Of a stretch of 64,000 nucleotides of DNA, positions 735 to 52,612 are shown in pieces. Within the stretch, counting starts at the first letter, position 1; the number at the start of each line of letters is the position of its first letter. The DNA is from an uncultured Candidatus Saccharibacteria bacterium (GTDB lineage Bacteria > Patescibacteriota > Minisyncoccia > RBG-13-40-8-A), in assembly GCA_965231075.1 (NCBI GenBank), contig OZ246412.1, positions 321,587 through 385,586 of the forward strand, read 5' to 3'. A program made the translations under genes and the position numbers. The notes below the pieces were generated by a model, which worked only from the letters and a program-made list of their open reading frames with translations, was not told the origin of the DNA and did no database searches.

Positions 735-1403
735 TTATTTTTCAGTTAAATCGTTCTTGATTTTTTCTAGAGTTTTTTCGGCCATGTTCTTACCGCCCAG
801 TCCGAATGCTAGTCCGCCAGCGATTGCTAACATCGCAATAATTCCCATAACAATGGTTTGAATTAAAGTTGTGGCAATGCCTAGTTGCGTTAAAGCAATT
901 ATGAATCCAAAAATTAAAATTGCCCACTTTACAATTGTTCCAATGGTTGACGATGATTGTAATCCTGCCGCATCAGCGCTGGCTTGCACTAATTTTTGCA
1001 TAAACTTCGCAACAATTCCCGCGGCTAACAAAATAATTGCCGCCACAATCACGCTAGGAATATAATACAAAATACTTTGTAAAAACATCGTTACTTGCGT
1101 TAATCCCAAAATATCAACTGCGGTCATCAAGAATACGATGATTAAAAACCATTTCACAAGTTCTTCAAAAAACTTTGCTGAATCTAACTTGATTTTTGTT
1201 TTTGACAAAACTTTTGCAAAACCAATTTTTTCTAAAAGCGAATCTAATTTTATGGTTTTGATTAACTTGTTGATTAATTTACCAATAAAAATGGAAATTA
1301 ACCAACCCACAATAAAAACAATCAGGGCAGCAATTAAGGTTGGCAAAAAACCAATAACGCTTACCCAGACTTGTTTTAACGAATTCAATAAAATTTCGAT
1401 CAT
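735..1403 (-). CDS. Integral membrane protein with repeated TM-helix modules, possibly small mechanosensitive-channel-like
   Basis: 222-aa ORF, several hydrophobic helices, K/E-rich C-terminus, own terminator. Confidence 0.5.
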   Translation of the reverse strand: MIEILLNSLKQVWVSVIGFLPTLIAALIVFIVGWLISIFIGKLINKLIKTIKLDSLLEKIGFAKVLSKTKIKLDSAKFFEELVKWFLIIVFLMTAVDILGLTQVTMFLQSILYYIPSVIVAAIILLAAGIVAKFMQKLVQASADAAGLQSSSTIGTIVKWAILIFGFIIALTQLGIATTLIQTIVMGIIAMLAIAGGLAFGLGGKNMAEKTLEKIKNDLTEK

Positions 1404-1491
1404 ATTGTTTGCCCTGTTAAATTCGCCTTTCGGCGACCCGCTTCGCGGGATTTAACGGGGTGAATTTAATTATTATCCCCTCCAAAATGAA

Positions 1492-2376
1492 TTATAGCAC
1501 ATATTGGATCATTAATCCAGCAAAAGCACTAATTCCAAAAAGCAAGGCTAAAATTTTAACTGCGTTTCTTTTATTTTTTTCTTCTTTAAACAAAATTAAT
1601 ATGCCCAGTCCGCCACCAGCACAAAGCCCAGAAATCATTGCTCCAAAAGTGATTATTTCTTTCAAATATAATTGAGCGATTAGAACCGATGACGCACAAT
1701 TAGGAATTAATCCAATTATTGCTGTTAAAAACGGTTGTAAAAATTTTTGTGTCGAGAAAAATTTGTAAAAATTTTCTTCTCCAATTAAAGAAATTAAAGC
1801 GCCGATTAGAAATGAAGCGCAAAATATAAAAAGAAAAATTTTCAACGTGTGAATTATGGGGTGCGAAAAATTAATTTTACTATGTCCACAACAGGCATGT
1901 TTGTCTACTGTTAATTCGTGATGATGTGTTTTGTCGTCGGTACCGTGTTTATAATTTTCGATATGAGTTAAAATGTTTTGATTGTGCTTTTTAAAAACAA
2001 AATCAATAAAATATCCGGCAATGAAGGCAATTACAATTTTTGTTAAAATCAATGGAAAAATTATTTTTGTCTTTTCGGGTTGAGATAAAATCACGGGAAT
2101 TGCTTCATCAGACGTGGATAAATAAACCGCCAACAATGTTCCAATCGTGATTAATCTTTGATTGTATAGTGCGGTAGCAATAACCGAAAATCCGCATTGC
2201 GGAAAACTCCCAGCAATTGATCCAATCGCTGGACCGGCTTTCCCGGCGTTTTGCATCTTTTCGCGAATTCTATTGCCAAATTTATATTCCACTAATTCAA
2301 TCGCAACATAAACCACCAACAGCAATGGAATCATTTTTGCACTATCAATCAATGCGTCTTTAAAAATCTCAAACAT
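1492..2376 (-). CDS. Multi-pass permease with duplicated Cys motifs and a His-rich loop; putative metal or organoarsenical exporter-like (ArsP_2-like)
   Basis: 294 aa, about 8-10 TM helices. Two repeat halves carry PQCGFS and PNCASS. Central loop KHGTDDKTHHHELTVDKHACCGH. Confidence 0.45.
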   Translation of the reverse strand: MFEIFKDALIDSAKMIPLLLVVYVAIELVEYKFGNRIREKMQNAGKAGPAIGSIAGSFPQCGFSVIATALYNQRLITIGTLLAVYLSTSDEAIPVILSQPEKTKIIFPLILTKIVIAFIAGYFIDFVFKKHNQNILTHIENYKHGTDDKTHHHELTVDKHACCGHSKINFSHPIIHTLKIFLFIFCASFLIGALISLIGEENFYKFFSTQKFLQPFLTAIIGLIPNCASSVLIAQLYLKEIITFGAMISGLCAGGGLGILILFKEEKNKRNAVKILALLFGISAFAGLMIQYVL

Positions 2377-2414
2377 ATAGTCATATTATATATTAATAAA
2401 TGTTTTGTAAAACA

Positions 2415-2442
2415 TTGACAAATTCTGTGTATATGTTATAAT
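2415..2442 (+). promoter_or_regulatory. Sigma-70 promoter TTGACA-N16-TATAAT of the TPM cassette
   Basis: TTGACA at 2415-2420, TATAAT at 2437-2442, then AAGGAGGT Shine-Dalgarno 6 nt before GTG 2470. Confidence 0.6.
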
Positions 2443-2469
2443 TAGGTCAATACCAAAAGGAGGTATCGC

Positions 2470-3219
2470 GTGAAAAAAACATTTGCTCTCTTTATCTTCG
2501 TTCTTCTGGTGTTCTCTGGAGCGGTTGCTCAGCAATTCCCAAAGAACACGGGCATGGTCAACGATTTTGCTAACATCATTCCTGATGATGTTCAGCAACA
2601 ACTCGAAGAAAACCTGAGAGAATTCAACGGTAAAACGTCGATTGAAATTGCCGTGGTAACGGTAAATTCTCTGGACGGCATGGTCATCGAAGACTACGCC
2701 GCAAGGCTCTTCAAAGAGTGGGGCATTGGCAAAAAAGACAACGATAACGGCGTTTTATTTCTCGTTGCAATGCGGGAGAAAAAAATGCGAATCGAAACCG
2801 GTTACGGTATCGAACCATTTTTAACCGATGCAACTTGCGGCAGGATAATCAATGACCAAATCGTACCGATCTTCAAGAGCGGCGCATACGCTTCGGGCAT
2901 TGCCCTAGGAATAAAAAAAATCATTGAAAAACTCGAGCAAGCCCACACAGAAGAACCTGAAGCACTGACTTCCGGCGACAAAAAAGTGAGGACGTTTAAA
3001 AATAACAGCGAAGTGGTTCTTATTGTCGTTCTCGTAATATTGTTGCTTGTTATAGTCGTGTTCGTTGCCTGGTTTGATGATGGCACGGGCGGTTCTAACG
3101 ATTCCGGCGGGGGGTTCATCAGTGGTAGTGGCTTTTCTTCGGGAGGTTCCGACTCTGGCGGAGGATTCAGCTTTGGTGGTGGATCGTCCGGAGGCGGAGG
3201 AGCCAGTGGTGGTTGGTAA
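2470..3219 (+). CDS. TPM-domain (TLP18.3/Psb32/MOLO-1, YgcG-like) protein with signal peptide, C-terminal TM helix and Gly/Ser-rich tail. GC-rich alien cassette.
   Basis: Motif GVLFLVAMREKKMRIETGYGIEPFLTD matches the TPM consensus. GC content is far above the surroundings. Perfect SD, GTG start. Confidence 0.7.
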   Translation: MKKTFALFIFVLLVFSGAVAQQFPKNTGMVNDFANIIPDDVQQQLEENLREFNGKTSIEIAVVTVNSLDGMVIEDYAARLFKEWGIGKKDNDNGVLFLVAMREKKMRIETGYGIEPFLTDATCGRIINDQIVPIFKSGAYASGIALGIKKIIEKLEQAHTEEPEALTSGDKKVRTFKNNSEVVLIVVLVILLLVIVVFVAWFDDGTGGSNDSGGGFISGSGFSSGGSDSGGGFSFGGGSSGGGGASGGW

Positions 3220-3325
3220 GTATTTAGAACGTTTAGGGGAAATCGCTTCGGCGATCTCCCCTATTTTTTTCTCGACCTTACGTTGGGATTTTGTCTTTAG
3301 ATTTTTGGCATGATAGAATCAATTT

Positions 3326-4666
3326 ATGGAAAATTATAAAGAATATTTCAAGAACAAAAAAATCATCATTATGGGACTCGGGCTACTTGGCCGAGGCATT
3401 GGCGTGGCAAAATTTTTGGCAAAACATGGCGCCGAACTTTTAATCACTGACTTGAAAACTGAACAACAGCTCGCTTCTTCCTTAAAACAACTCAAAAAAT
3501 TTAAAAACATTAAATATATTTTGGGTCAACATCGCATTGAAGATTTTCAACAAGGAGATATGTTAATCAAGGCCGCAGGGGTTCCGTTGGATTCAATTTA
3601 TCTTGCCGAGGCAAGAAAAAACAATATTCCCATCGAAATGGATGCTTCCTTGTTTGCTAAATTTACTAAAGCAAAAATTATTGGCATCACTGGCACGCGT
3701 GGAAAATCAACCGTAACACAAATGATTTATCATGGGCTGAAAAAATATTACAGAAAAGGAAATGTATTTTTGGGTGGAAATGTACGTGGACTTGCGACTT
3801 TGCCACTACTCGAAAAAGTTAAAGATAATGATGTTGTTGTTCTCGAGTTAGATTCTTGGCAATTACAAGGTTTTGGCGAAGCCAAAATTAGCCCACAGAT
3901 TGCCGTATTTACAACTTTTATGAACGACCACATGAATTACTATAAAAATGACATGCAAAGATATTTTGACGACAAGGCAAAAATTTTCGAACACCAAACC
4001 GAAAAAGATTTTCTAGTAATCAGTGAACAAGCGATGTTACAAATTAAAAAAAGGACCCAATACGGAAAAATAAAAAGTAAAATAACCGTTGTAAATGAGG
4101 ATGCAATTAGAAACCTAAAAACTAAATTAATTGGTGAACACAACAAAACTAATATTGCTTTAGCGGTTGAAGTTCTAAAATTAATGAAATTAAATCAAAA
4201 GCAAATTAAACAAGCAATTGCCACTTATCCTGGTGAGCCCGGACGATTACAAATGATTTTAAAAAGAAATGGAGTTGCTTATTACAACGACAATAATGCT
4301 ACTTCACCTGACGCTTGCGTAGCTGCCTTAAATTCTCTTTATAAAAACGAAAAAAATATTGTTTTGATTTGTGGTGGAGCTGACAAGGAATTTAATTTTA
4401 ATGATATGTTAGAAGTTATCGCCAATACAACTAAAAATGTTGTATTCATAAAAGGCACAGCAACTGATAAGATTTTAAATATTTTGCCGAAAGACTTTCC
4501 TGAATATGTTGTTGTTGATTCAATGCCATTGGCAGTTAAAGAAGCGAGAAAATCTGTTAAAAAAGGAGACGTTATTTTATTGTCTCCTGGTGCCGCATCA
4601 TTTGGTGTTTTCAAAAACGAATACGACCGCAATGATCAATTTGTAAAATACGTTAAAAAATATTGA
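3326..4666 (+). CDS. murD: UDP-N-acetylmuramoyl-L-alanine--D-glutamate ligase
   Basis: N-terminal IMGLGLLGRGIG Rossmann motif, GITGTRGKST P-loop, Mur ligase C-terminal domain. No SD; likely -10 TAGAAT 6 nt before the ATG. Confidence 0.85.
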   Translation: MENYKEYFKNKKIIIMGLGLLGRGIGVAKFLAKHGAELLITDLKTEQQLASSLKQLKKFKNIKYILGQHRIEDFQQGDMLIKAAGVPLDSIYLAEARKNNIPIEMDASLFAKFTKAKIIGITGTRGKSTVTQMIYHGLKKYYRKGNVFLGGNVRGLATLPLLEKVKDNDVVVLELDSWQLQGFGEAKISPQIAVFTTFMNDHMNYYKNDMQRYFDDKAKIFEHQTEKDFLVISEQAMLQIKKRTQYGKIKSKITVVNEDAIRNLKTKLIGEHNKTNIALAVEVLKLMKLNQKQIKQAIATYPGEPGRLQMILKRNGVAYYNDNNATSPDACVAALNSLYKNEKNIVLICGGADKEFNFNDMLEVIANTTKNVVFIKGTATDKILNILPKDFPEYVVVDSMPLAVKEARKSVKKGDVILLSPGAASFGVFKNEYDRNDQFVKYVKKY

Positions 4667-4691
4667 CAAATATCGCATATTATGATAAAAT
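4663..4691 (+). promoter_or_regulatory. Sigma-70 promoter TTGACA-N17-TAAAAT for the small membrane protein cassette
   Basis: TTGACA 4663-4668, TAAAAT 4686-4691, followed by GAGGAGGT SD and TTG start at 4724. Confidence 0.55.
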
Positions 4692-4723
4692 AAAGTAGTT
4701 CGAATCAATTAGAGGAGGTTCGT

Positions 4724-5017
4724 TTGATCGAACAACTGTGTGCTGTTTTCTCTGTTTCGGACGTGGTGGCGCAAGTGATCGGGTCGGTCAAGACCTGGAT
4801 CATCAAGATGGATCGGGCGTTCTTGCGTAAGGACCCCTTTCTACTGCTGACGGCGGTATCCTATGTCGTCGCGATGGCTATCGGGACGATGACGGGGCTG
4901 CTGTTCAGCAACGAACTCACCCAATTCATCGTCTTCTTATCGGCGTGGTTGGTGGTGTTCGTGGGCTTGGGCGTCACCTATTGGTTTTTCTTCGCCAAGC
5001 TGGCGCGGAAAAACTAG
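4724..5017 (+). CDS. Small (97 aa) GC-rich integral membrane protein of unknown function; alien cassette
   Basis: Three predicted TM helices, G/C-ending codon bias, perfect SD, TTG start, own terminator. Confidence 0.55.
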   Translation: MIEQLCAVFSVSDVVAQVIGSVKTWIIKMDRAFLRKDPFLLLTAVSYVVAMAIGTMTGLLFSNELTQFIVFLSAWLVVFVGLGVTYWFFFAKLARKN

Positions 5018-5030
5018 ACAGAGAGCGGAC

Positions 5031-5068
5031 AAAGGCCGAGTGGGAAACCACTCGGCCTATTTTATTTT
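5031..5068 (+). terminator. Rho-independent terminator of the 4724-5017 cassette
   Basis: AGGCCGAGTGG-GAAA-CCACTCGGCCT hairpin followed by TATTTTATTTT. Confidence 0.7.
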
Positions 5069-5085
5069 GCTAACGCATATTTAAA

Positions 5086-6396
5086 ATGTTAAAATTTAAA
5101 CTTATGCTAGATCACGTTAAAAAAATACATTTTATTGGGGTTGGAGGCGTGGGAGTTTCGGCAATTGCCAGAATGGCCCGACTTAAAGGCATAAAAGTTA
5201 CCGGCTCTGATGTTTCCATGAATAAAATGGCCGAAAGAATTCAAACCATTCACGGCAAAATTTTTATTGGTCACAAGCGCGAAAATTTACCCCAAGACAC
5301 TGATATGGTTGTTTATTCCCCCGCCATAACCGAAGATAATCCCGAAATGATTTACGCTAAAGAATTAAACATTCCCACCTATTCATATCCCGAAATTCTA
5401 GGAATAATTTCTAAGGACATGCACACAATTGCCGTTTCCGGAACTCACGGCAAAACTACCACCACTTCCATGCTTGCGGAATTATTTATTTATGGAAATT
5501 TAGATCCCACAGTTGTTGTTGGGGGTCTTTTAAAAAAACAAGAAGATAATTTTGTTTTGGGAAGCAGTAAACACTTTATTGTTGAGGCCTGCGAATATAA
5601 GGAGTCGTTTCTGAACTTAACTCCCAATATTTTAATAATTTTAAACATTGATAATGATCATTTAGATTATTATGGGACAATTGAAAATGTTAAAACCGCA
5701 TTCAAAAAATTAATCGAAAAAGTGCCCGATGACGGATATATAATTTACAACGGAGATGACGAAAATGTTTTAGATGTCTTGGGTAATGCAAGTACAAATG
5801 CTAAAAAATTAAATTATTTAGACGTAAAAGCCGAAATTAAACTTTCTGTTCCTGGCGAACATAATTTAAAAAATGCCAAAGCCGCATTTACGGTTGCGAG
5901 ATTAAACGGAATCACAGAAAATGTGGCCTTAAAAATTTTAAAAAATTATACCGGCACTTGGCGCAGGTTTGATTTTATGGGAAACACAAAAACTGGCGCT
6001 TTAATTTATAACGATTATGGCCATCATCCCACAGAAATTAAAGCGACTATTGCTGCAGCAGAACAATTATATTACGATAATAGAATTTTTGTTGTCTTTC
6101 AGCCACATTTATTTTCACGCACAAAACTTTTATTAAACGATTTCGCAACTGCTTTTGATTTGGCGGATGAAGTAATTATCACCGATATTTATGCTGCCAG
6201 AGAAAAAGATGATCACTCAATCCATGCTAAAGATTTAGTTGATGCGATAAATAAAAAAATCATTAAAGCAAAATACGTTAATGATTTTGATAATATTAAA
6301 AAATATTTAGAACTTAAAGCACAAAAAGACGACATCATCCTCCTCCAGGGCGCGGGGGATGTTTACAAGATTGGAGAAGAAATTGTAAAAAAATAA
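5086..6396 (+). CDS. murC: UDP-N-acetylmuramate--L-alanine ligase
   Basis: HFIGVGGVGVSAIA N-terminal motif, GTHGKTTTTSM P-loop, Mur ligase domains. Confidence 0.85.
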   Translation: MLKFKLMLDHVKKIHFIGVGGVGVSAIARMARLKGIKVTGSDVSMNKMAERIQTIHGKIFIGHKRENLPQDTDMVVYSPAITEDNPEMIYAKELNIPTYSYPEILGIISKDMHTIAVSGTHGKTTTTSMLAELFIYGNLDPTVVVGGLLKKQEDNFVLGSSKHFIVEACEYKESFLNLTPNILIILNIDNDHLDYYGTIENVKTAFKKLIEKVPDDGYIIYNGDDENVLDVLGNASTNAKKLNYLDVKAEIKLSVPGEHNLKNAKAAFTVARLNGITENVALKILKNYTGTWRRFDFMGNTKTGALIYNDYGHHPTEIKATIAAAEQLYYDNRIFVVFQPHLFSRTKLLLNDFATAFDLADEVIITDIYAAREKDDHSIHAKDLVDAINKKIIKAKYVNDFDNIKKYLELKAQKDDIILLQGAGDVYKIGEEIVKK

Positions 6397-6398
6397 AT

Positions 6399-7424
6399 TT
6401 ATTTAATACCCTCTCCGCCGAACCATTTTTTGTATAGCGTGTCGTAAAGTCCGCTCTCTTGGACAGTTAAGATTGCACGATTTATTTTCTCTCTTAATGG
6501 GCTGTTGTTTTCTAGAACAAAACCGTAATCTTGTTTATCAAATAACTCTCCTACAATTTTAACTTTTCCCGCTCCTTCATTAAGGGCATAATATTCTAAA
6601 ATTGGTGCATCAAACACAACGACTTCAACTTCGTTGTTTTTTAATTTTTCGTATGCTTCTTCTATCTTAATCACAGGTACAATTATCGCTCCCAAACTTT
6701 TTAATACCGGTTCAGTGGTTGTCCCTTGGACCGTAGCAACAACTTTTCCCGACAAATCTTTGGGGCCCTCGATATTAAGTTTTATTTTTCTGGTTGTTAA
6801 AAATGCCGTAAATTGTCCGATAATCAACCCTAGCGCAGCCAGTTTAACTAATTGTCCGAATTGAACAACAATAAACCCCGCCCAAGATTGAACCTTGTAA
6901 ACTGTTATCATTGCCGGAGAACCAAGAATCATTGATAAAGAAAACCAAATTGCCTGAAAAATTCCTGGAAAATACGTTTTTGAAAATGTTTCGGCACTTT
7001 TTTCTGTTAACCACAACACATTACCAAAAACAATAATTATTAGAGCCAAAAGAAGTATTGGTTTTAATAATTTTTTATATCCTTGTGTAAAAAATGTCTT
7101 TATCGTACTACCAATATTTACTCTCGATCTGTCTTTTGACAACAGAATACGCAACCCGGAATGAAAGGTTGCGTGTGAAAAATCAATAACTTCTTCGCGT
7201 TTCTCGTTAATCGTTATCGAAGCCATAGCAATGTCTGCCTTTTTGTCGGCAACAAGTGGAATCAATTCTTGAAAATTATATTTGCTATATTCAAAATCTG
7301 TTTGGATTTCCTTGGCAATCATTTCCCATAATTCAATTTCAAACCCAGAATATTTTCCATCTTTCTCAAAAACGAAAGGAGAAAGATTTGTCACCGCGAT
7401 TTTTAATTTATTTGTCATATACAT
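6399..7424 (-). CDS. Ionotropic-glutamate-receptor-like ligand-gated channel: a split periplasmic amino-acid-binding (SBP_bac_3) domain interrupted by an M1-pore-M2 channel module
   Basis: Lobe 1 (LKIAVTNLSPFVFEKDGKYSGFEIELW...ADIAMASITINEKREEVIDFSH), TM/pore segment, lobe 2 (GKVVATVQGTTTE...VVVFDAPILEYY...YGFVLENNSPLREKINRAILTVQESGLYDTLYKKWFG). Confidence 0.65.
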   Translation of the reverse strand: MYMTNKLKIAVTNLSPFVFEKDGKYSGFEIELWEMIAKEIQTDFEYSKYNFQELIPLVADKKADIAMASITINEKREEVIDFSHATFHSGLRILLSKDRSRVNIGSTIKTFFTQGYKKLLKPILLLALIIIVFGNVLWLTEKSAETFSKTYFPGIFQAIWFSLSMILGSPAMITVYKVQSWAGFIVVQFGQLVKLAALGLIIGQFTAFLTTRKIKLNIEGPKDLSGKVVATVQGTTTEPVLKSLGAIIVPVIKIEEAYEKLKNNEVEVVVFDAPILEYYALNEGAGKVKIVGELFDKQDYGFVLENNSPLREKINRAILTVQESGLYDTLYKKWFGGEGIK

Positions 7425-7440
7425 TTATTATATCATAAAC

Positions 7441-7470
7441 AAAAAAATCCCGTAATGTGGGATTTTTAAG
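7441..7470. terminator. Bidirectional hairpin terminator between tRNA-Ala and the channel gene
   Basis: AATCCCGTAATGTGGGATT flanked by A7 and T5. Confidence 0.55.
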
Positions 7471-7544
7471 TGGTGGACCATAGGAGAATCGAACTCCTGT
7501 CCTCCGGATGCAAACCGGGAGCTCTACCACTAAGCTAATGGCCC
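7471..7544 (-). tRNA. tRNA-Ala (anticodon UGC), CCA encoded
   Basis: GGGCCAT acceptor with G3:U70, anticodon loop TTTGCAT, T-arm GGAGTTCGATTCTCC, 3' CCA. Confidence 0.85.
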
Positions 7545-7556
7545 TCAAATAAAATT

Positions 7557-7630
7557 TGCGCGTGCATGGACTCGAACCATGGACCTCGTCATTATCAGTG
7601 ACGCGCTCTAACCGCCTGAGCTACACGCGC
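7557..7630 (-). tRNA. tRNA-Ile (anticodon GAU), no encoded CCA
   Basis: GCGCGTGTAGCTCAGGCGGTTAGAGCGCGTCACTGATAATGACGAGGTCCATGGTTCGAGTCCATGCACGCGC; the classic rRNA spacer tRNA. Confidence 0.85.
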
Positions 7631-7638
7631 GAAAAATC

Positions 7639-7797
7639 TTAGGCCTTGCCTAAAATTTTAAACATTCCTGTTCCACAAACTGGACAAACACCTTTTAATG
7701 CTCTTCTGTCCCCTCCCTTTCCTTTCATTTTAACTTCTTTGGCGTCTTTCATTTCTTGTTTTGCTCTACACTTAACACAATATGCAATATCTGCCAT
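7639..7797 (-). CDS. 52-aa C4 zinc-ribbon protein encoded between 16S and tRNA-Ile (MADIAYCVKCRAKQEMKDAKEVKMKGKGGDRRALKGVCPVCGTGMFKILGKA)
   Basis: Below the 60-aa ORF-track cutoff; found by hand translation. CxxC...CxxC, highly basic. Own promoter TTGATT-N18-TATAAT (about 7841-7870, minus strand). Stop lies 4 nt from tRNA-Ile. Confidence 0.5.
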   Translation of the reverse strand: MADIAYCVKCRAKQEMKDAKEVKMKGKGGDRRALKGVCPVCGTGMFKILGKA

Positions 7798-7870
7798 AAA
7801 AATAAAATTTATTAATTATTAATAAACTTACTTTATTATACAGCTAAAATAATAATAAAATCAAGCACAA

Positions 7871-7906
7871 ATAAAAAAATCGTCTAATAGACGATTTTTT
7901 TATTTC
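7871..7906 (-). terminator. Hairpin terminator downstream of the 16S 3' end
   Basis: AATCGTCTA-AT-AGACGATT followed by T7ATTT on the minus strand (and A-run/T-run on both sides). Confidence 0.55.
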
Positions 7907-8042
7907 GAATTCTTTATGGTTTTCCCGATACTTATTATTTGTTTAGTACAAATAATTAAAAAACTTTTTATGTTACTGCCTTATCGGCAAATAATCGACT
8001 CTTACTTAATAAATTTTATTTACTAAGTAAAAATATTTTCCA

Positions 8043-9503
8043 TCCACAGGTTCCCCTACGGATGCCTTGTTATGACTTCACCCTAGTCACCGAATTTACC
8101 TTAGGACTCTGAAATCAGAGCACGTCAGGTACTCCCGGCTTCTCTGGTGTGACAGGCGGTGAGTACAAAGCTTGAGAACGTATTCACCGCAGCGTAGCTG
8201 ATCTGCGATTACTAGCGATTCCGGCTTCATGGGGTCGAATTGCAGACCCCAATCCGAACTGGGGCCGATTTTGATGAGATTGGCTCCATCTTACGACTTG
8301 GCGACTCATTGTATCGGCCATTGTAGCGCCTGTGTTGCCCAGGGTATCAAAGGGCCATGCTGATTTGGCGTCATCCCTACCTTCCTCCTCGTATCACGAG
8401 GCAGTCTTGTCTGACACTTATAACAGACAACAGGGGTTGCGCTTGTTACCCGAATTAACGGAGCAACTCACGCCACAAGCTGACGACAACCATGCAGCAC
8501 CTGTTCTAGTGTCCTTGTAGAAGACCCGACTTTCATCAGGCTTTCACTAGAATTTCAAACCCTGGTAAGGTTCTCCGCTTACCGTCGAATTAAACCAGAC
8601 GCTCCACCGCTTGTGCAAGCTCCCGTCTATTCCTTTGAGTTTTAGTCTTGCGACCGTACTTCCCAGGCGGAGTACTTAACGCGTTAGCTTCGTCACCTGA
8701 AGGGTCGATACTTCAGACAACTAGTACTCATAGTTTAGGGCGTGGACTACAAGGGTATCTAATCCTTTTTGCTCCCCACGCTTTCGTCTCTCAGGGTCAG
8801 AAATGCACCAGCCAAATGCCTTCGCCTTTGGTATTCCCTAAGGTATCAACGGATTTCACCCCTACTCCTTAAGTTCTATTGGCCTCTCACACTCTCTAGT
8901 CTGACCGTTTCCCCTGCAGTTTCGATGTTGAGCATCGAAATTTAACAGAAGACGTATCAAACGCCCTACAGACGCTTTACGCCCAGTAATTCCGGACAAC
9001 GCTTGGGGTACTCGTATTACCGCTGCTGCTGGCACGAGTTTAGCAACCCCTTATTCATAGAGTACACTCAAAAATTGCTCCTCTATAAAAGTACTTTACA
9101 TCCCGAAGGACTTCTTCATACACGCGGCGTCGCTCCATCAGACTTTCGTCCATTGTGGAAGATTCTCGACTGCAGCCTCCCGTAGGAGTAAGGCCCGTAT
9201 CTCAGTGCCATCGTTGGGGAACACGCTCTCACGCCCCCTACCCGTCATCGCCTTGGTAAGCCATTACCTTACCAACTAGCTGATAGGACGCAGGCCACTC
9301 TCTCACCATCTTATCTTGCGATAAGACTTTACTCTTGCGAGACCATCGGAAATTATCTTGCCTTTCGGCAAGTTATGTCCGAGTCAGAGGGATGTACCTA
9401 CGTATTACTAACTCGTTCGCCATGGGTCTAAACCCATTCGACTTGCATGCCTAATCCACGCCGCCAGCGTTCGTCCTGAGCTAGGATCAAACTCTCAATA
9501 AAG
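8043..9503 (-). rRNA. rrs: 16S rRNA, complete, about 1.46 kb
   Basis: 5' end AGAGTTTGATCCTAGCTCAGGACGAACGCTGGCGG (reverse complement at about 9470-9503). 3' end ...GTCATAACAAGGCATCCGTAGGGGAACCTGTGGATGGA (8043-8080). The 530 loop reads GTGCCAGCAGCAGCGGTAATAC (9014-9035), carrying the C-to-A change in the 515F site reported for Patescibacteria. Confidence 0.9.
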
Positions 9504-9788: not shown

Positions 9789-10405
9789 GGGTTTTTCCTC
9801 CACTCGTTTATTTTTTTGTGATCGCCGGATAAGAGGGTTTTTGGAACGGGCCATTTATTGAAAACTTCTGGTCTAGTGTAAACGGGATAACTGCCTTTGA
9901 TTTCTTCAAGTGATTCGTGTTTTCCTAAAACGCCAGGAATCAAACGACTGACTGCGTCCACAACGATCATCGCTGGAATTTCCCCGCCAGTTAAAACATA
10001 ATCACCAATCGAAACTTCTTCGTCAGCAATATGTTTTGCCACTCTTTCGTCGACTCCTTCGTATCGTCCACAAATCATAATTAAATTATCTAATTTTGAA
10101 AATCTTTTCGCCATCGCTTGATCAAACTTTTTCCCGCGAGTAGAGAAAAGAATTACCTTCGTCTTCGAACTTCGAACCTTCAACTTTTTAACCGCTTTAA
10201 AAATTGGCTCCAGCATCATAACCATTCCCGGCCCTCCACCATACGGCGTATCATCCACGGTCTTTCTTTTGTCGTCCGTAAAATCTCTCAAATTATGAAT
10301 TTTGATATTCACCAATTTCTTTTCCTGCGCACGCTTAATAATGCTCTCATTAAAATAGCTTTGAAATATATCCGGAAATATTGTTATTATATTGAACTTG
10401 ATCAT
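9785..10405 (-). CDS. trmD: tRNA (guanine37-N1)-methyltransferase
   Basis: [13 protein letters not shown] motif, SPOUT-fold length. Downstream of rpsP and the KH protein, as in the canonical operon (rimM is absent). Confidence 0.8.
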
Positions 10406-11418: not shown

Positions 11419-11427
11419 ATTAAAATC

Positions 11428-11456
11428 AATATAACAGATAATTAATTTTGTGACAA
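11428..11456 (-). promoter_or_regulatory. rpsP promoter giving an essentially leaderless mRNA
   Basis: -35 TTGTCA (11451-11456), -10 TATATT (11428-11433), ATG at 11418. Confidence 0.5.
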
Positions 11457-11475
11457 GTCCTACATATTCTCTAGC

Positions 11476-11577
11476 AAAAAATTTGTTTTCACTGAGACAA
11501 TTTCGGAAGCCCCGCCACGCGGGGCTGAGAATTAGCGCGCCTCTGACAATTTGCAGGGGCGACGCGTGTCGACATGG
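11476..11577. repeat. Copy A of a roughly 100-bp structured intergenic element (second copy at 40188-40287)
   Basis: TTTCACTGAGACAATTTCGGAAGCCCCGCCACGCGGGGCTGAGAATTAGCGCGCCTCTGACAATTTGCAGGGGCGACGCGTGTCGACATGG. Two hairpins plus a CGAC(A/G)CGTGTCG palindrome. About 85% identical to copy B, with compensatory stem changes. Confidence 0.7.
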
Positions 11578-11593
11578 AAATAAATTTTGAGCG

Positions 11594-12334
11594 TTATTCC
11601 CAACACTTCTTTTTTAGCGCCTTTCTGGCTGCGTCTTCCTGTGCTGCTTGTTTTGAAGGACCCTCGCCCTCAGCAACCAAACTATCTTTTAGATAAACCC
11701 CGACAACAAATTTTTTGCAATGATCGGGGCCTTCTTCGTTTCTTACTTGATAACTCGGCGTAATTCCTACCTTCCCCTGGGCTTGTTCTTGGAAATAGCT
11801 TTTTGGATCAACGTAAAGCTTTTCATCTAAAACTCTTTTTAATTCACAAACAATATTTTTTAAAATAAATTCTTCGGCTTTGTCATATCCTCGATCTAAA
11901 TAAATTGCCCCGATTGTTGCTTCTAGTGTGTTGGCCAAAATAAATTGTCTGGCGCGACCATTGTCTTGTGATTCGCCCTTAGATAAAATTAGATATTCAT
12001 TAAATTCTAATTTTGAAGCAACCTCAGAAAGCATTTTTGAATTCACCAATGCTGCTCTCCAGGCAGTTAAATCCCCTTCCGGATTTTTGGGGTATTTATT
12101 AAACAGATAATTTGTCACTACTAATTCCATTACTGCATCACCCAAAAACTCTAATCTTTCGTTTTGCTCTAGTTTGCAACCCGGATTTTCATTTAAATAA
12201 GAGCGGTGCACGAATGCCTGCTCTAATAATTTCTTGTTCTTAAATTTTATTTTAAGATTCTTTTCTAATTTTTCAAAATCTTTATTTATCATTGGTTTTC
12301 TCCATTTCTCTAAAAATTGTTCCCAAAACGCCAT
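11594..12334 (-). CDS. rnc: Ribonuclease III
   Basis: [15 protein letters not shown] signature and C-terminal dsRBD. The 5' end overlaps the nusB 3' end; the true start may be the internal Met at about 12292. Confidence 0.85.
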
Positions 12335-19969: not shown

Positions 19970-20167
19970 TTATTCTTCTAGTTTTTTTAGTTTTATCCGT
20001 AATTCTGCTAATTCGTTTAGTCGTGGATCTGGATATTTGTGCTGAACGCCAAGTTTCTTAGACATTTTTTCGTCTGCACTTATTGCTTCTTGCAATTTTT
20101 CTATTTCGTCAATTATTCGATTAATCTCCTCTATCCTTGATAACGAGGGAAATCCTTCTTTCTTCAT
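19970..20167 (-). CDS. Small coiled-coil protein, hypothetical
   Basis: 65-aa ORF immediately downstream of gatB; no recognisable GatC motifs. Confidence 0.35.
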   Translation of the reverse strand: MKKEGFPSLSRIEEINRIIDEIEKLQEAISADEKMSKKLGVQHKYPDPRLNELAELRIKLKKLEE

Positions 20168-20173
20168 ATAGAT

Positions 20174-21595
20174 TTATTTTAATTTTCTAATAATTATTTC
20201 TGCCGCAATATTTGGATTGGCCTTGCCTTTTGATTCTTTCATTGCTAAGCCAATTAAAAACTGTAACGCAGTCCCCTTGCCTTTTTTGTAATCCTCAACT
20301 GGTTGAGGGTTATTTTTTATTATCTTATCGATGATCTCATCCATTTCTCCTGTATCGGTCATTTGTTTTAAATTTTTTAACTCCACAATTTGTGATGGAT
20401 CGCCTCCAGTTCTAAACATTTCTTTTAAAACTTCTTGCGCTCCACTCGAAGAAACGTCCCCAATAAATGTCATATAAATGAGTTCGGCAAAGTTTTCTGG
20501 TGTAATTTTTATCTCTCCAGTTATTGGCACAAATTTAGGGAATTCAGTAATAATATAATTTGCGCTCAACACAATTAATCGATCAATGTCAGTTTTAATC
20601 TTCCCACCTTCTAACCATCCCTTTAATTCACTTACGGTTTGTTCAAAAAATTCTGATAAATATTTAGATCCCACCAAAACGTCGGCATTTTGTTCCGACA
20701 ACTTGTATTCTTGCGTAAATCTTTCTTTCCTTGCAAATGGTAATTCGGGAATTTCTTGTTTTAATTTTTCTATGTCTTCTCTGCTAAAATTCATTGGTGG
20801 CAAGTCTGGTTCTGGAAAATATCGATAATCATCCGAAGTTTCTTTGATTCTTTGAGAAAAGGTTTCTCCTTTGGCATCGTTCCATCCACGCGTTTCGTGA
20901 ATAACTTTTTGGTCTTCTTCTAAAATCGCTTGCTGTCTAATAATTTCAAATTCAATCGCCTTTTCTACGGATCTAAATGAATTAAGATTTTTTACCTCAA
21001 CTTTTGTGCCCATGTTTAAAGAAATGTTTGCTTCCACGCGCATTTGTCCTTTTTCCATATCGGCATCAGAAATTCCTAAATATTTAAAAATTAATTGCAA
21101 GTCCTGCGCAAATTTCTTTGCTTGTTGAGCATTATGAATGTCTGGCTCCGTAACCAATTCCATCAAAGGAACGCCTGCACGATTATAATCAACTAAAGAA
21201 TAGTCCCCTTTATCGTGAATTGATTTACCAACATCTTCTTCTAAATGAATTCTTCTGATTCTAATATTGTCTAGTTTTCCTTCATAACACAATGGTGATT
21301 CGAATTGTGTAATTTGGTATCCCTTCGGCAAATCGGGATAAAAATAATTCTTTCTCTCGAACCAAGTTTTTTCGTTAATTTTACAATTTAAGGCCAATCC
21401 TGCTTTAATCACATCGTGTGCTGCTTCTTCATTAATGACTGGCATCGAACCCGGTTGCGCAGTACAAACTGGGCAAATATTAACATTGGGATCCTTTTGT
21501 AAAGGATCATTCAAACAAGAACAAAACATTTTCGTTTTGGTCTTTAATTCCACGTGAATTTCTAATCCAATTGTCGGCTCATATTTATTTGCCAT
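20174..21595 (-). CDS. gatB: Asp-tRNA(Asn)/Glu-tRNA(Gln) amidotransferase subunit B
   Basis: N-terminus EPTIGLEIHVELKTKTKMFCSC plus a full-length GatB core. Confidence 0.85.
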   Translation of the reverse strand: MANKYEPTIGLEIHVELKTKTKMFCSCLNDPLQKDPNVNICPVCTAQPGSMPVINEEAAHDVIKAGLALNCKINEKTWFERKNYFYPDLPKGYQITQFESPLCYEGKLDNIRIRRIHLEEDVGKSIHDKGDYSLVDYNRAGVPLMELVTEPDIHNAQQAKKFAQDLQLIFKYLGISDADMEKGQMRVEANISLNMGTKVEVKNLNSFRSVEKAIEFEIIRQQAILEEDQKVIHETRGWNDAKGETFSQRIKETSDDYRYFPEPDLPPMNFSREDIEKLKQEIPELPFARKERFTQEYKLSEQNADVLVGSKYLSEFFEQTVSELKGWLEGGKIKTDIDRLIVLSANYIITEFPKFVPITGEIKITPENFAELIYMTFIGDVSSSGAQEVLKEMFRTGGDPSQIVELKNLKQMTDTGEMDEIIDKIIKNNPQPVEDYKKGKGTALQFLIGLAMKESKGKANPNIAAEIIIRKLK

Positions 21596-22154: not shown

Positions 22155-22200
22155 AAAATAATAAAAAAATGAAGTCCTACCGGCTATCCGGTAGGACTTC
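22155..22200 (-). terminator. Terminator of the GC-rich dCMP-deaminase/thyX cassette
   Basis: GAAGTCCTACCGG-CTAT-CCGGTAGGACTTC followed by T7ATTATTTT on the minus strand. Confidence 0.7.
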
Positions 22201-22208
22201 TTCGATTT

Positions 22209-22487
22209 TTAAAGACCGAGTCGTTTTTTGAGTTCCTCCTCACCCTCAATCCTGATAGGATCAATCTTAAACGGTTCGCCCTCTAGTGGTTCACAGATAC
22301 TTTCTCCTGATCTGCGTAAATCACAGAGTTTGCCGTTTATCCCGTGTTCCAGGACTTTTGGGCTTACCCCCGTCCCCATGTCGATGTCTTCGACGGTTTC
22401 ACCGTGTACACTGCAACAGGAATAGGTTCCATCCGGTTCTGGCTTGAAAAACAATCGATACATGCAGGTAAAGCACTGTCCTTTCAT
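22209..22487 (-). CDS. 92-aa Cys-rich protein of unknown function, translationally coupled to thyX (ATGA overlap); GC-rich
   Basis: MKGQCFTCMYRLF...YSCCSVHGETVED...; seven Cys, GC-rich codons. Confidence 0.45.
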   Translation of the reverse strand: MKGQCFTCMYRLFFKPEPDGTYSCCSVHGETVEDIDMGTGVSPKVLEHGINGKLCDLRRSGESICEPLEGEPFKIDPIRIEGEEELKKRLGL

Positions 22488-32019: not shown

Positions 32020-32476
32020 TTAGCGGTCCGATGGAGGAGGTGATCCAAGCATCTGACTTCGGTCCGATCCCACTGAAAGGAGAGTTATGACAATTTGATT
32101 GTCTAAGGTCGAGGCATTCGGTAAAATCCCACTGACCGGCCAAAGGAAGAGAGGAGGATACTGTTTGCTTGCGTAGGTGTACCTTCAAAGACATCGCCCT
32201 AATATAGGGGCACCGAGGATTGGTCTTAGGACCTCCGGACAATAGTCCCAGTGTATCGCGTTTCTTCGGAAATGCGAATGACTAGAGGATGAGTCCCCTC
32301 GAACAAAAGAGGCAATTGCCTAACGTTCACTTTTGCGTGCCGTGTGCACTGCATAAAGTACTCAAGAACCGTTAGGGTTCGCCTTACCTCCGGGTAAAAA
32401 TTAAAACCCGACAGGTCGCACCATAGGGGCCAAAAAAACAGGGCTTCTCCCGGCGGGAGAAGCCCTTTATTATTTT
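32020..32476 (+). ncRNA. Candidate structured ncRNA of unknown class (about 450 nt, GC-rich, no ORF longer than 75 aa)
   Basis: GC is far above the local background, as for rRNA and tRNA in this genome. UUCG-loop hairpins on the plus strand (GAC-UUCG-GUC; CGCGUUUC-UUCG-GAAAUGCG). Internal repeat AUCCCACUGA..GG..AAAGGA. Ends in a strong bidirectional terminator GGGCTTCTCCCG-GCG-GGAGAAGCCC (32441-32465). Begins with GGAGGAGGTGATCCAAGC. Confidence 0.4.
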
Positions 32477-38417: not shown

Positions 38418-40190
38418 ATGAAAAAATTATCACCCATTATAGCAATAGCTTGTGTTTTTTTAATGCTTGTTTTGGCGACAATCAGTCAGCAACAAGAATC
38501 GGCAATTATGGACGAAGTAGCGCACATTCCAGCTGGATATTCTTATCTCACCCAAAATGATATGCGCTTAAACCCAGAACATCCTCCGTTACTTAAAGAT
38601 CTATCTGCAATCCCCTTACTTTTTATAAACAACATTAAGTTTCCTATGGGATTGAGTGCTTGGACATCGGAAATTAATAGCCAATGGGATTTTGGTTTTA
38701 ATTTTTTATATAGGTTTGGCAACGATGCCGATAAAATCGTTTTTTGGTCCAGAATACCAATGTTGTTGTTGTTAATTCTGTTAGGATATTTTGTCTATCA
38801 ATGGACAAAAAAATTATACGGCAAGATTCCGGCATTATTCGCAATAATTTTATTCGCTTTTTCGCCAACATTTATCGCTCATGGTCGATATGTAACAACC
38901 GATGTTGGTGCGGCTTTTGCATTTTTTTTCGCCTCTTATTTTTTTATTAAGTGGTTAAGAAGTCAAACCAGCAAAAATCTATTTATTGCCGGCATTGCTT
39001 TTGGCGTTGCTCAATTAATAAAATTTTCTTTGATTTTACTAATTCCCTATTTTGGAATTTTAATTTTGATCTATGTTTATATTAAGTGGCGAGAAGATAA
39101 AAAATTCTGGAAGAACTTTATTAAATATGTTTGGAAATTTGTTTTAATTATGATTATCGGCTTTGTTCTTGTTTATCCGGTATACGCATTTCACGTCGCG
39201 GGCTATCCCGTTGAAAAACAACTTTCTGATACCAAATTTATAGCCTCTACATTTCCTCTTAAGCCCGCTGGAGATCTTGTGGTATGGATGTCTGAACAAC
39301 CAATATTGAGGCCGTATGCTCAATATACAATGGGATTGTTTATGGTATTTATTAGAGCAACCGGCGGTAACACAACTTTTTTCTTAGGCGATGTTACCAA
39401 CAAGGGATGGAAAAGCTACTTTCCGATAGTTTATGCGATTAAGGAACCGTTGGCGCTACACATTCTCACGATTATCGCTCTTTTGGTTCTAGCGGCTGGA
39501 GGGACAATAATTGCATGGAAAAAGATATTTAAATCATTTCCGCAATTTTTGAAAAACAATTTTACAGAAATTGCCATGTTAATTTTCTTAGCGATTTATT
39601 GGGGGGCCAGTCTAACCAGCAATCTCAATATCGGCGTTAGACATATCTTACCCACGTTTCCATTTGTTTACGTTCTAATTTCTGGTCAAATTAAAAAATT
39701 GTTTGAAAAAATCCACAACAAAAAAATAATTACCATCGTTTGGATATTAATTATTGGATTAACTGGTTGGTATGTTGTATCTTCGCTTTCTTCTTTCCCT
39801 TATTATTTGTCTTATTTTAACGAATTAACCGGTGGTAGTAAAAATGGATATAAATATGTTACCGACTCTAATCTTGATTGGGGTCAGGACCTGAAACGAC
39901 TTGCCAAATGGGTTGAGGAAAACAAAATCCCCAAAATTTATGTAGATTATTTTGGAGGCGGAATTCCCAATTATTATTTGTGGGATAAAGTTGAAAATTG
40001 GTCGGGAAACAACAGTCCCGAAGAAGCCAAAGGAAAATGGATAGCGGTCTCGGCAACGTTTAAGCAACAAGGCCAGGCATTGCAAACAAAAGGCTGGACA
40101 CAAAAAACTGACTTCTATTTCTGGCTTAATCAATACGAACCCGTAACGGTCATCGGTAATTCTATTTTTGTATATTATATAGATAAATAA
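38418..40190 (+). CDS. GT-C fold glycosyltransferase (PMT/ArnT-like, GT39/GT83 family)
   Basis: N-terminal loop-1 DE motif (AIMDEVAH), at least 11 TM helices, C-terminal soluble domain. Confidence 0.6.
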   Translation: MKKLSPIIAIACVFLMLVLATISQQQESAIMDEVAHIPAGYSYLTQNDMRLNPEHPPLLKDLSAIPLLFINNIKFPMGLSAWTSEINSQWDFGFNFLYRFGNDADKIVFWSRIPMLLLLILLGYFVYQWTKKLYGKIPALFAIILFAFSPTFIAHGRYVTTDVGAAFAFFFASYFFIKWLRSQTSKNLFIAGIAFGVAQLIKFSLILLIPYFGILILIYVYIKWREDKKFWKNFIKYVWKFVLIMIIGFVLVYPVYAFHVAGYPVEKQLSDTKFIASTFPLKPAGDLVVWMSEQPILRPYAQYTMGLFMVFIRATGGNTTFFLGDVTNKGWKSYFPIVYAIKEPLALHILTIIALLVLAAGGTIIAWKKIFKSFPQFLKNNFTEIAMLIFLAIYWGASLTSNLNIGVRHILPTFPFVYVLISGQIKKLFEKIHNKKIITIVWILIIGLTGWYVVSSLSSFPYYLSYFNELTGGSKNGYKYVTDSNLDWGQDLKRLAKWVEENKIPKIYVDYFGGGIPNYYLWDKVENWSGNNSPEEAKGKWIAVSATFKQQGQALQTKGWTQKTDFYFWLNQYEPVTVIGNSIFVYYIDK

Positions 40191-40287
40191 AAAAATATTC
40201 TCACTGAGACAACTTCGGAAACCGACTGCAGTCGGTTGAGAATTAGTGCGCCATTGACAATTTGCAATGGCGACACGTGTCGACATG
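40188..40287. repeat. Copy B of the roughly 100-bp structured intergenic element
   Basis: TCTCACTGAGACAACTTCGGAAACCGACTGCAGTCGGTTGAGAATTAGTGCGCCATTGACAATTTGCAATGGCGACACGTGTCGACATGAG, lying between convergent genes. Confidence 0.7.
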
Positions 40288-40298
40288 AGAATATTTCT

Positions 40299-40907
40299 TT
40301 ATTTATAGTAAATACGATTTTCGATCCGCAAATCAATATATTGGAGACTCATTCGATCTTCAATTTTTTCATCTAGAACAACTTTTAGCGATAAAAGTTG
40401 TTTTTTAATTTCTTGTTTTAGGCCAAATAAGACATACCAGCTTTCATTGGTCACAACTCTTAATTTATTTACAGGGTAACTGTCGATATCAAAACTAACA
40501 GCACTCAAACCAATTTCTGAAGATAAATAATTTTTTATTTCTGTGATCATATTAATCGTTTCGAGATTTAAAACTTGATCATATAACTTAATTTCTTTAT
40601 CAGAGTAATCTTTAATCAATAAAACTAGTCCTCCGCTTGTTCTGGGAGCGTCTTCAAAAATAACCCCTTGTTTGTCAACGTAAAAACACTTATTTTCCTG
40701 CAAAGAATTCTCTTTGCAAAAAATTCCGATTTGTTCGTATTTTTTAATATCCTCTCTTTTTGTTTGAAAATTTAAATAGGGGATCAAAATGTAAATTAAA
40801 TACAGTGTTAATAAAATCAAAACAATCAGAAGAATTTTTTTTCTTTTTTTTCCTCTCGGCCTGCGCTGATATTGATTTAAATCGATTTTTTTTCTCTTCT
40901 TAAACAT
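40299..40907 (-). CDS. Single-pass membrane protein, possibly FtsQ/DivIB-like (POTRA)
   Basis: Basic N-terminus, TM helix, about 150-aa periplasmic domain; follows alr. Confidence 0.3.
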   Translation of the reverse strand: MFKKRKKIDLNQYQRRPRGKKRKKILLIVLILLTLYLIYILIPYLNFQTKREDIKKYEQIGIFCKENSLQENKCFYVDKQGVIFEDAPRTSGGLVLLIKDYSDKEIKLYDQVLNLETINMITEIKNYLSSEIGLSAVSFDIDSYPVNKLRVVTNESWYVLFGLKQEIKKQLLSLKVVLDEKIEDRMSLQYIDLRIENRIYYK

Positions 40908-45529: not shown

Positions 45530-45580
45530 AAAATAAAAAAAGAGGGGCGCCTAAGGCGCCCCTCTTTTTATTTTTATTCT
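45530..45580. terminator. Bidirectional terminator between lysS and the ATPase gene
   Basis: A-run, AGAGGGGCGCC-TAA-GGCGCCCCTCT, T-run. Confidence 0.7.
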
Positions 45581-52569: not shown

Positions 52570-52612
52570 AAATGGGCCAAGCGCAAGCGCTTGGCCCTAT
52601 TTTATTTCTTTA
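52570..52612 (+). terminator. Terminator of the 52150 cassette
   Basis: GGGCCAAGCGC-AA-GCGCTTGGCCC then TATTTTATTTCTTT. Confidence 0.7.

Follow-up and report, generated by a model that had tools for sequence, protein, structure and literature searches.

What kind of element is the short structured sequence that stands twice between genes in a 64-kb stretch of Patescibacteria DNA (contig OZ246412.1; the whole stretch is called the window here), and what keeps its fold? An earlier note, made from the letters of the window, had placed two intergenic copies at 11476-11577 and 40188-40287 and had offered a small RNA (sRNA), an insulator/terminator module or a miniature mobile element as explanations. 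Both copies, here copies A and B, are present at these positions, and we found that they belong to an undescribed family of interspersed repeats, 125-150 nt long, whose hosts are Patescibacteria near Candidatus Portnoybacteria; the homologues of its RNase III place the host of the window there. At roughly even odds (a probability of about 0.5), we regard this as a new family of non-autonomous, mobile, stem-closed interspersed repeats akin to REP (repetitive extragenic palindromic)/BIME (bacterial interspersed mosaic element), REPIN or MITE (miniature inverted-repeat transposable element), with a fold that is under selection. The element is thus a known kind of bacterial interspersed repeat represented by a new family, and not a new kind of gene. 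Throughout, the + strand is the orientation in which the earlier note had drawn the element.

The two copies and their homologues

The 19-mer CACTGAGACAAYTTCGGAA occurs in the window only at 11490 and 40202, where 0.01 occurrences were expected from shuffles, and the ~85% identity first given for the two copies agrees with a mean column identity of 86% over 123 columns in a MAFFT alignment. The extent of ~100 bp was too short. When the copies were folded with their flanks, the AT-rich flanking sequences, which are unlike between copies, were found to pair with each other within each copy and to form an outer stem, so that the elements span ~11474-11592 and ~40184-40305 (~120 nt). On the + strand, copy A folds at -55 kcal/mol (z = -6.2 vs shuffles) and copy B at -46.7 kcal/mol (z = -7.2 vs shuffles); their covariance-model (CM) scores are 117 and 118.5 bits, respectively, and copy B was also detected as inverted repeat I2. 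A CM scan of the 64 kb with filters off revealed no third copy, the weak matches being ordinary terminator hairpins.

Approximately 75 homologues were collected from Patescibacteria metagenome contigs and metagenome-assembled genomes (MAGs), by pattern searches and then by CM searches of the fetched loci (designated by L numbers) and of syntenic regions. A strict two-block pattern gave 52 metagenome loci, all of them true homologues. In a looser scan of reference genomes, two Patescibacteria MAG loci were true homologues and 117 of the 119 matches were due to chance, because the pattern, with 16 specified bases, was too loose. No match to Rfam 15 was obtained for the window at the gathering score; at E<=10 copy A gave only four sub-threshold matches of chance level, and at E<=0.1 three element-rich loci gave nothing. 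ARAGORN found no tRNA or tmRNA at the element, and literature searches found no description of such repeats in Patescibacteria or the candidate phyla radiation. A phage or plasmid origin was rejected on finding no matches in viral contigs, INPHARED and PLSDB. Self-cleaving ribozymes (hammerhead, twister, pistol, hatchet and hairpin) were likewise rejected, with no Rfam match to E<=10; read by eye, the sequences CUGAGAC and CUGAGAA do not fit the hammerhead core CUGANGA, and the hairpin-ribozyme core is equally unfit. On the sense strand, many copies (e.g. L127, L128, L129 and L163) start with UAGCUCAG, which equals the conserved U8-G15 stretch of the tRNA D-arm; a tRNA-like origin was dismissed, this being a resemblance only, to which no tRNA model matches.

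Secondary structure and covariation

The element consists of an AT-rich outer stem of variable sequence that closes a three-way junction with helix P1a and two GC-rich hairpins, P2 and P3. The outer stem carries a conserved GCGARG/CYGAGC module with tandem G.A pairs on one strand, and the joining strands are conserved and purine-rich on the + strand. In copy A, for example, a CUGA/GACA internal loop in which tandem G.A pairs are possible precedes P1a, and P2 is flanked by UUC (11502-11504) and GAA (11529-11531) and by a GGA/GA internal loop. Within the family, P2 is either short (17-18 nt) or long (39 nt), the sequences of P3 are wholly different between copies with pairing always kept, and P2 and P3 are often one and the same hairpin in direct orientation (CCGACCGCAGUCGG). 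Divergent subfamilies have Watson-Crick pairs in place of the CUGA/GACA internal loop and differ in their junction strands; the long subfamily and a second family (family 2, see below) have conserved hairpin and bulge loops, YCGCUGGG and GCAUGG.

Between copies A and B, P2 changes from AGCCCCGC/GCGGGGCU to AACCGAC/GUCGGUU and P3 from GCCUCUG/CAGGGGC to GCCAUUG/CAAUGGC, and a third compensatory change, overlooked by the earlier note, lengthens P3 (GCGC...GACGC vs GUGC...GACAC). The pairing-preserving differences first described as compensatory are real, but a part of them, comprising all of P2 and the arms, looks like an exchange of hairpin modules and not like stepwise compensation; some of the apparent covariation is accordingly module swapping. 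The P3 loop ACAAUUUG, which had been called identical, is indeed the same in both copies but is specific to this genome and absent from other homologues. The supposed palindrome CGACRCGUGUCG is not a unit, since its halves are the base of P3, which covaries with GYGC, and P1a (GACA/UGUC). A DNA palindrome or operator CGACACGTGTCG with a parS-like CACGTG core was also rejected, as it is broken in many copies, in which the pairing of the halves with GYGC and GACA is kept.

Covariation was assessed in 53 distinct homologue sequences with 37 consensus pairs. Changes on both sides were seen in 29 of the 37 pairs, and standard pairs occupied 97.2% of the cells, compared with 80.2% in column shuffles and 32-50% when the partners were slid by 1-3 columns. 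In the family alignment, 14 of 15 outer-stem pairs and all 11 P3 pairs had changes on both sides. The P1a and UUC/GAA helices were invariant but lie within the search pattern and are therefore uninformative on covariation; blocks outside the pattern, namely GACRYGUGUCGACAU and the arm motif GCGARG...CYGAGC, are conserved as well. Further copies that broke the stems had been named as evidence that would count against a selected structure, and the homologues instead keep their pairing. We conclude that the covariation is genuine and that intrastrand folding is selected, as the earlier note had argued in preferring selection on structure to a passive repeat.

Strand and gene context

In essentially every homologue the + strand, which carries the better fold, runs antisense to the gene whose end adjoins the element. 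The + fold exceeded the sense fold in stability in 49 of 60 copies, with a mean difference of 3.7 kcal/mol, and likewise in all five family-2 copies, and three conserved internal loops form tandem G.A/A.G pairs on the + strand (CUGAG opposite CGAAG, GGAAG or GACAUG), where the sense strand has U.C/C.U. Counted on the + strand, G.U and A.C combinations stood at 53:27, or 44:24 and 22:10 after the removal of near-duplicates, and a hand tally of columns switching between G-C and A-U gave about 30 G.U-type vs 8 A.C-type intermediates. The mutation bias derived from the skew would favour the opposite wobble direction and not this + strand excess. About 85% of the genes are on the minus strand, which, together with the skew, suggests that genes and replication are co-oriented; the + strand would then be the leading-strand template, not the strand exposed at the fork. 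The orientation is compatible with a tie either to the gene or to replication, tandem gene pairs on the minority strand being too rare in the sample to separate the two. No conserved promoter for a + strand transcript spanning the outer stem was found in the upstream flanks of the copies.

In 51 of the 53 copies, 0-6 nt separate the outer stem from the stop codon of the right-hand gene, which is on the - strand, and the left neighbour is either another - strand gene or a convergent + strand gene. All copies of one contig have a single orientation, and at the syntenic loci L185-L190 13 of 13 copies were antisense to called genes. Read in the sense direction, the order is stop codon, element, and then either an ATG 10-15 nt on, often without a Shine-Dalgarno sequence, or a good sigma-70-type promoter. 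The upstream genes have no common functional theme (among them are those for a hydrogenase, LysRS, ribosomal protein S9, FtsJ, MurF, RecJ, DnaJ and MTAP), and the neighbours are rnc, rpsP, ftsQ, lysS, recJ, dnaJ, rpsI and similar housekeeping genes in conserved synteny. The placements first given for the window, copy A between the end of rnc and the rpsP promoter and copy B between convergent gene ends, were right, and the outer stem of copy B takes in the stop codons of both the PMT-family gene and FtsQ. Canonical arms are U-rich at the 5' side and A-rich at the 3' side, with a 3' U-run only in copies of convergent context, and a terminator scan found no terminator-like site at copy A or B. 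Inside the element, no consensus-like -35/-10 pair at the right spacing was found on either strand; a promoter match at copy B (TCGACA-18-TATAGT) was rejected because its -10 lies in the coding end of FtsQ and is not conserved elsewhere.

Presence, absence and target sites

Comparison of orthologous sites revealed presence/absence polymorphism at six junctions. The site of copy A is empty in L173, L176 and L177, where rnc and rpsP are separated by only 32, 4 and 3 nt and RNase III is 90, 81 and 72% identical, respectively; these three relatives keep the synteny dnaE-rpmF-nusB-rnc-rpsP-KH-trmD. When the junctions are aligned, the rpsP promoter proves to be conserved, with ~140 additional nt in the window separating its -35 box from the rnc stop, and the TAG stop of the relative reappears directly after the element, with a new TAA at the 5' edge of the element. 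The FtsQ|PMT junction of copy B is filled in the window, L144, L124 and L139, and has a gap of 0-1 nt in L179, L180 and L182. Because L179 is nested in the clade of the window and L144 (86-90% identity in PMT and 72-79% in FtsQ), an empty site inside a filled clade points to clean loss or to repeated hits at the same site. At LysRS|HD, MTAP|DJ-1, APRT|MTAP and PAP2|APRT, too, syntenic genomes differ, some having the element and others an empty site. In addition, the FAD-oxidase junction carries different subfamilies in L185 and L186, in which MTAP is 82% identical, and MTAP|DJ-1 carries the studied element in L164 and L185, nothing in L186 and family 2 (~140 nt) in L126.

Copy density also varied, from none in six 20-kb regions of relatives, and none in L192 (11 kb, from the genome of the window or from an almost identical strain), to two in the 64-kb window and four in 7.9 kb of L164. 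Copy B is a mosaic, with arms and P2 as in its orthologue in L144 and an unusual P3 found elsewhere only in copy A, indicating that hairpin modules have been exchanged between copies. Of 41 canonical copies, 23 have a stop triplet immediately after the element in the sense direction (TAA in 19 of them), and in four filled/empty comparisons the ancestral stop has seemingly been retained after the element, which fits insertion at the TA of a stop codon. TA or TAA adjoins many copies; copy B and several others misfit TA insertion, and TA is self-complementary and also extends the stem.

The coordinates of the two copies and of other features of the window are collected in Table 1.

Table 1. Parts of copies A and B and other features located in the window
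Feature	Position	Strand	Remarks
Copy A, whole element	11474..11592	+ (better-folding strand)	Between rnc stop codon (11594-11596, -) and rpsP promoter
Copy A, outer stem 5' arm GCAAAAAAUUUGUUUUCA	11474..11491	+	Pairs with 11575-11592
Copy A, outer stem 3' arm UGGAAAUAAAUUUUGAGC	11575..11592	+	
Copy A, helix P1a 5' strand GACA	11496..11499	+	Partner UGUC at 11567-11570
Copy A, hairpin P2 AGCCCCGC-CAC-GCGGGGCU	11508..11526	+	
Copy A, hairpin P3 GCGCGCCUCUG-ACAAUUUG-CAGGGGCG-A-CGC	11535..11565	+	
Copy B, whole element	40184..40305	+	Between convergent stop codons of PMT-family gene (38418-40190, +) and FtsQ (40299-40907, -)
Copy B, hairpin P2 AACCGAC-UGCA-GUCGGUU	40220..40237	+	Same P2 in orthologue L144
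Copy B, hairpin P3 GUGCGCCAUUG-ACAAUUUG-CAAUGGCG-A-CAC	40246..40276	+	Loop and stem type common only to copy A
rpsP promoter TTGTCA-17-TATATT	11428..11456	-	Outside the element, directly downstream in sense direction
153-aa open reading frame	39825..40286	-	From conserved ATG inside copy B; almost certainly spurious
Canonical GC-hairpin intrinsic terminator	7869..7905		
Canonical GC-hairpin intrinsic terminator	22186..22215		
Canonical GC-hairpin intrinsic terminator	32432..32474		
Canonical GC-hairpin intrinsic terminator	45531..45575		
Canonical GC-hairpin intrinsic terminator	52587..52612		
23S rRNA 5' end	383	-	
tRNA-Ile and tRNA-Ala	7471..7630	-	
16S rRNA	8028..9502	-	

A possible mobile, stem-closed repeat

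Among the three explanations first offered, the miniature mobile element is favoured, the window sites being empty in close relatives and both density and subfamily being variable. The sRNA is unlikely because the strand drawn in the earlier note runs against the adjoining gene and no conserved promoter was found for it, and the generic terminator role was not borne out. If the element is mobile, it would enter the very short spacers at the ends of genes, the TA of a stop codon being the most likely site; its first base (G or A) would there complete a new stop at one edge, and the old stop would be kept at the other. It would then be kept in one orientation, could be lost cleanly and would swap hairpin modules within a genome. 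The fold may be kept because the mobilising enzyme would read the folded single strand, and a stem-closed insert may bring the flanking stop and start signals back together and so be tolerated inside operons. We infer that transposition is ongoing or recent and that the TA of stop codons is the preferred target. Together with family 2, the repeats probably constitute a superfamily.

Several observations weigh against mobility of this kind. No transposase or recombinase was found adjoining or associated with the element, and the sequence of its outer arms is variable, which is not expected of terminal inverted repeats read by a transposase. When the flanks were checked for target-site duplications, as the earlier note had suggested, no consistent duplication was seen at ~40 boundaries and in six filled/empty pairs. 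The better-folding strand is expected on the leading-strand template, opposite to transposition of the IS200/IS605 single-strand type. Rather divergent genomes have the element at some of the same junctions (at PAP2|APRT, in three genomes, and at FtsQ|PMT), and a host function would also be in keeping with the strict orientation and the covariation. Furthermore, the copy numbers are extrapolations from contigs and regions to whole genomes.

A further, rather unlikely interpretation is that the elements are not simple MITE or REP analogues but substrates of an undescribed structure-specific machinery of Patescibacteria, an idea prompted by the selection of the fold on the antisense strand and by the tandem-G.A modules and loops common to the second family. 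Such machinery might be a new stop-codon-targeting recombinase or transposase of single-stranded DNA, or a system operating via antisense or cDNA copies of mRNA 3' ends.

Alternative explanations

The element might instead serve the host in the sense transcript, by protecting 3' ends against exonucleases, as a processing site (e.g. for RNase III) or by termination where the arms are A-rich and then U-rich, and might have spread and been kept because it is useful; we hold this to be plausible but less probable, and a host function in the sense transcript is compatible with mobility. The element starts 0-6 nt past the stop codon of the upstream gene and could be co-transcribed with it, copy A and several others are followed by a sigma-70-type promoter as expected of the end of a transcription unit, some junctions stay filled across divergent genomes, and the structure is strongly conserved. 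The convergent-end copies (copy B, L124, L139 and L144) resemble bidirectional intrinsic terminators, with arms that in copy B read A-tract, structure and U-tract in both directions. However, the common form of the element, U-rich at 5' and A-rich at 3', has no U-tract after the stem and is often followed by an ATG 10-15 nt on, and its core is a conserved three-way junction of 87-107 nt, unlike an intrinsic terminator. A generic terminator was accordingly rejected for this form, canonical terminators being present elsewhere in the window, and close relatives do without the element at the same junctions. The sense strand also folds worse, its counterparts of the G.A/A.G loops being U.C/C.U mismatches, and the wobble pairs favour the antisense strand 2:1 despite the opposite expected mutation bias. 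That same preference for the + strand, with G.U exceeding A.C, three or more tandem G.A modules, purine-rich junction strands and greater stability, would be accounted for by a family of independent sRNA genes on the + strand, antisense to their neighbours, in which the G.A modules and loops would bind protein; the loops YCGCUGGG and GCAUGG kept in the long subfamily and family 2 would also agree. Nevertheless, independent sRNA genes are distinctly unlikely, as there is neither a conserved + strand promoter upstream nor a terminator downstream, each locus has another gene starting at its left flank, invariable antisense orientation and contact with a stop codon are unexpected of an independent gene, and occupancy and copy number differ among close relatives.

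Known systems acting on single-stranded DNA, namely REP/REPIN with RAYT, PATEs (palindrome-associated transposable elements) with IS200/IS605 ends, or integron attC sites, are improbable as the source of the element, even though they share several of its features. A Y1 (IS200/RAYT-type) transposase is present in a close relative, but another hairpin, TACGGAGGACNGTCCTCCGTA, flanks its gene, of which neither the window nor the element-rich loci have a homologue. P2 and P3 often repeat a single direct hairpin (CCGACCGCAGUCGG), in the manner of the left-end and right-end hairpins of IS200/IS605, and two similar subterminal direct hairpins, absence of a clear target-site duplication, clean loss or excision and strand-specific folding or selection are common to both; however, the P2 and P3 sequences differ freely between and even within genomes, the outer stem of the studied element joins its ends, and no TnpA is associated with it. 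The active strand of IS200/IS605 and PATEs is that on the lagging-strand template, whereas the better-folding strand here, antisense to the majority gene orientation, is the opposite one. attC sites are alike in keeping structure over sequence, in the folded strand being complementary to the coding strand, in their place right after the stop codons of co-oriented genes and in the layout of duplex, internal loop, duplex and variable terminal structure. They differ in having R''/R' core boxes (RYYYAAC...GTTRRRY), where the studied ends read GCGARG...CYGAGC without RYYYAAC/GTTRRRY core sites, and the neighbours here are core housekeeping genes in conserved synteny, not cassettes, with no integrase seen. 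Nor is the element a symmetric REP doublet. Coding potential, as a mini-open reading frame (ORF) from the conserved sense ATG of CAUGUCGAC, and chance or passive duplication can scarcely be entertained. A sense ATG (or TTG/GTG) is found in nearly all copies, in many of which a 13-codon frame runs to the conserved TAA of AAUUA, and short ORFs are listed across both window copies; but the frame is not kept, with core lengths of 84, 85, 86, 87, 105, 106 and 107 nt and P3 indels of 1-2 nt, and in copies A (translated by hand) and B it continues for 31 and 153 aa, respectively. Substitutions track base-pairing and not codons, and there is no ribosome-binding site; the element is non-coding. Chance is excluded by the ~75 structured homologues.

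Comparison with known repeats

The REP/BIME sequences of enterobacteria are also short, structured extragenic repeats that lie at gene ends or between cistrons and are co-transcribed with the upstream gene; they too are mosaics of a few reusable hairpin modules, form imperfect palindromes with conserved mismatches and occur in many copies per genome. They are single hairpins of ~35 nt, whereas the studied element is a three-way junction closed by a long variable stem, is strictly of one orientation, abuts a stop codon, occurs in Patescibacteria and has no sequence similarity to them. REPINs are mobilised by RAYT transposases (Bertels and Rainey; PMC3116915, PMC3337134). They resemble the studied family in being non-autonomous repeats of ~100 nt that fold as single strands, persist vertically in varying number and form within-genome populations with subfamilies, but they are symmetric doublets of inverted REPs, in contrast to a three-way junction with P2 and P3 direct and not inverted. 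No RAYT flanked by the studied element was found in the window or the fetched loci, and the RAYT-like gene of the relative has a REP hairpin of its own. This gene, encoding a 231-aa Y1_Tnp (IS200/RAYT-like) protein, lies between dnaE and rpmF at L173:8170-8990 (also in L174 and L175) and is flanked by the hairpin TACGGAGGACTGTCCTCCGTA, with one internal copy; the same hairpin stands alone in the spacer downstream of MTAP in L188 (~9888-9910). Y1_Tnp and the TACGGAGGACTGTCCTCCGTA hairpin look like a classical REP/RAYT system of the clade; they bear no sequence relation to the studied element, the window lacks them, and tblastn found no Y1_Tnp homologue in the window or any fetched locus.

MITEs such as Correia of Neisseria, ERIC, RUP and BOX have a similar size (100-150 nt), stem-forming ends, intergenic location and presence/absence among strains, can affect neighbouring transcripts and may share a TA target (Correia). 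In the studied element, however, the ends keep pairing only, for example in the arms AGAAATATTCT, AAATTTGTTTG and GAAGATTTATTTTA, without conserved terminal inverted repeats; its most conserved parts are the internal junction strands, and it follows a one-orientation rule and has no known parent insertion sequence. REPIN/RAYT systems, IS200/IS605-derived PATEs, integron attC sites, classical MITEs and intrinsic terminators are each at odds with the element in one or more of their defining features.

Related elements and other features

Family 2, from the same genomes, comprises stem-closed, structured intergenic sequences of ~140 nt, at L126:1063-1205, L170:501-645, L149:9078-9222, L165:9678-9807 and L122:6902-7031 and 8411-8511. 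Three features of its antisense strand recur in the studied family, namely the CUGAG/CGAAG tandem-G.A module, a hairpin whose loop is YCGCUGGG and a GCGGGCAUGGU-hairpin-GAGCGAG module; it had no Rfam match, nor was it found in the window. L185 has two more structured, stem-closed sequences between genes that match neither family: that at 11571-11797 (GGAGCGAATATTG...CAATATTCGCTCTTTTTTG) ends in a T-run and may be an sRNA gene, and that at 20079-20241 is closed by CCAACTAA...TTAGTTGG.

In the window, the rpsP promoter region (11419-11456, - strand), with a TG upstream, is conserved with L173:10700-10737, in which the rnc stop codon and the -35 box overlap; a distance of only 12 nt from the -10 box to the ATG of rpsP suggests a leaderless or very-short-leader mRNA. 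Several of the terminators in Table 1 are bidirectional (A-tract, hairpin, T-tract), indicating that the organism has ordinary terminators besides the element. The 153-aa ORF runs from copy B antisense through the end of the PMT-family gene. The rRNA genes, at window positions 1-9502, are unlinked, with ~7 kb and six ordinary genes between the 5' end of 23S and 16S/tRNA-Ile/tRNA-Ala; these genes encode a solute-binding protein, two Mur ligases, a TPM phosphatase, an ArsP_2 exporter and an MscS-like channel.

Significance

Patescibacteria genomes are among the smallest and most gene-dense in bacteria, and one element of 125-150 nt every 2-3 kb in some of them is a density unexpected of streamlined genomes. 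The family is a marker of genome dynamics in an uncultured lineage and provides a large natural covariation set for a three-way junction with tandem G.A modules. Even if it is an ordinary MITE-like parasite, it still needs to be annotated, since copies would otherwise be taken for sRNA genes or terminators or give rise to wrong gene calls, such as the 153-aa ORF. What is puzzling is that the fold is maintained on the non-mRNA strand and that the element stands exactly at stop codons, and solving this could reveal a new mechanism of mobilisation or a new layer of gene-end organisation.

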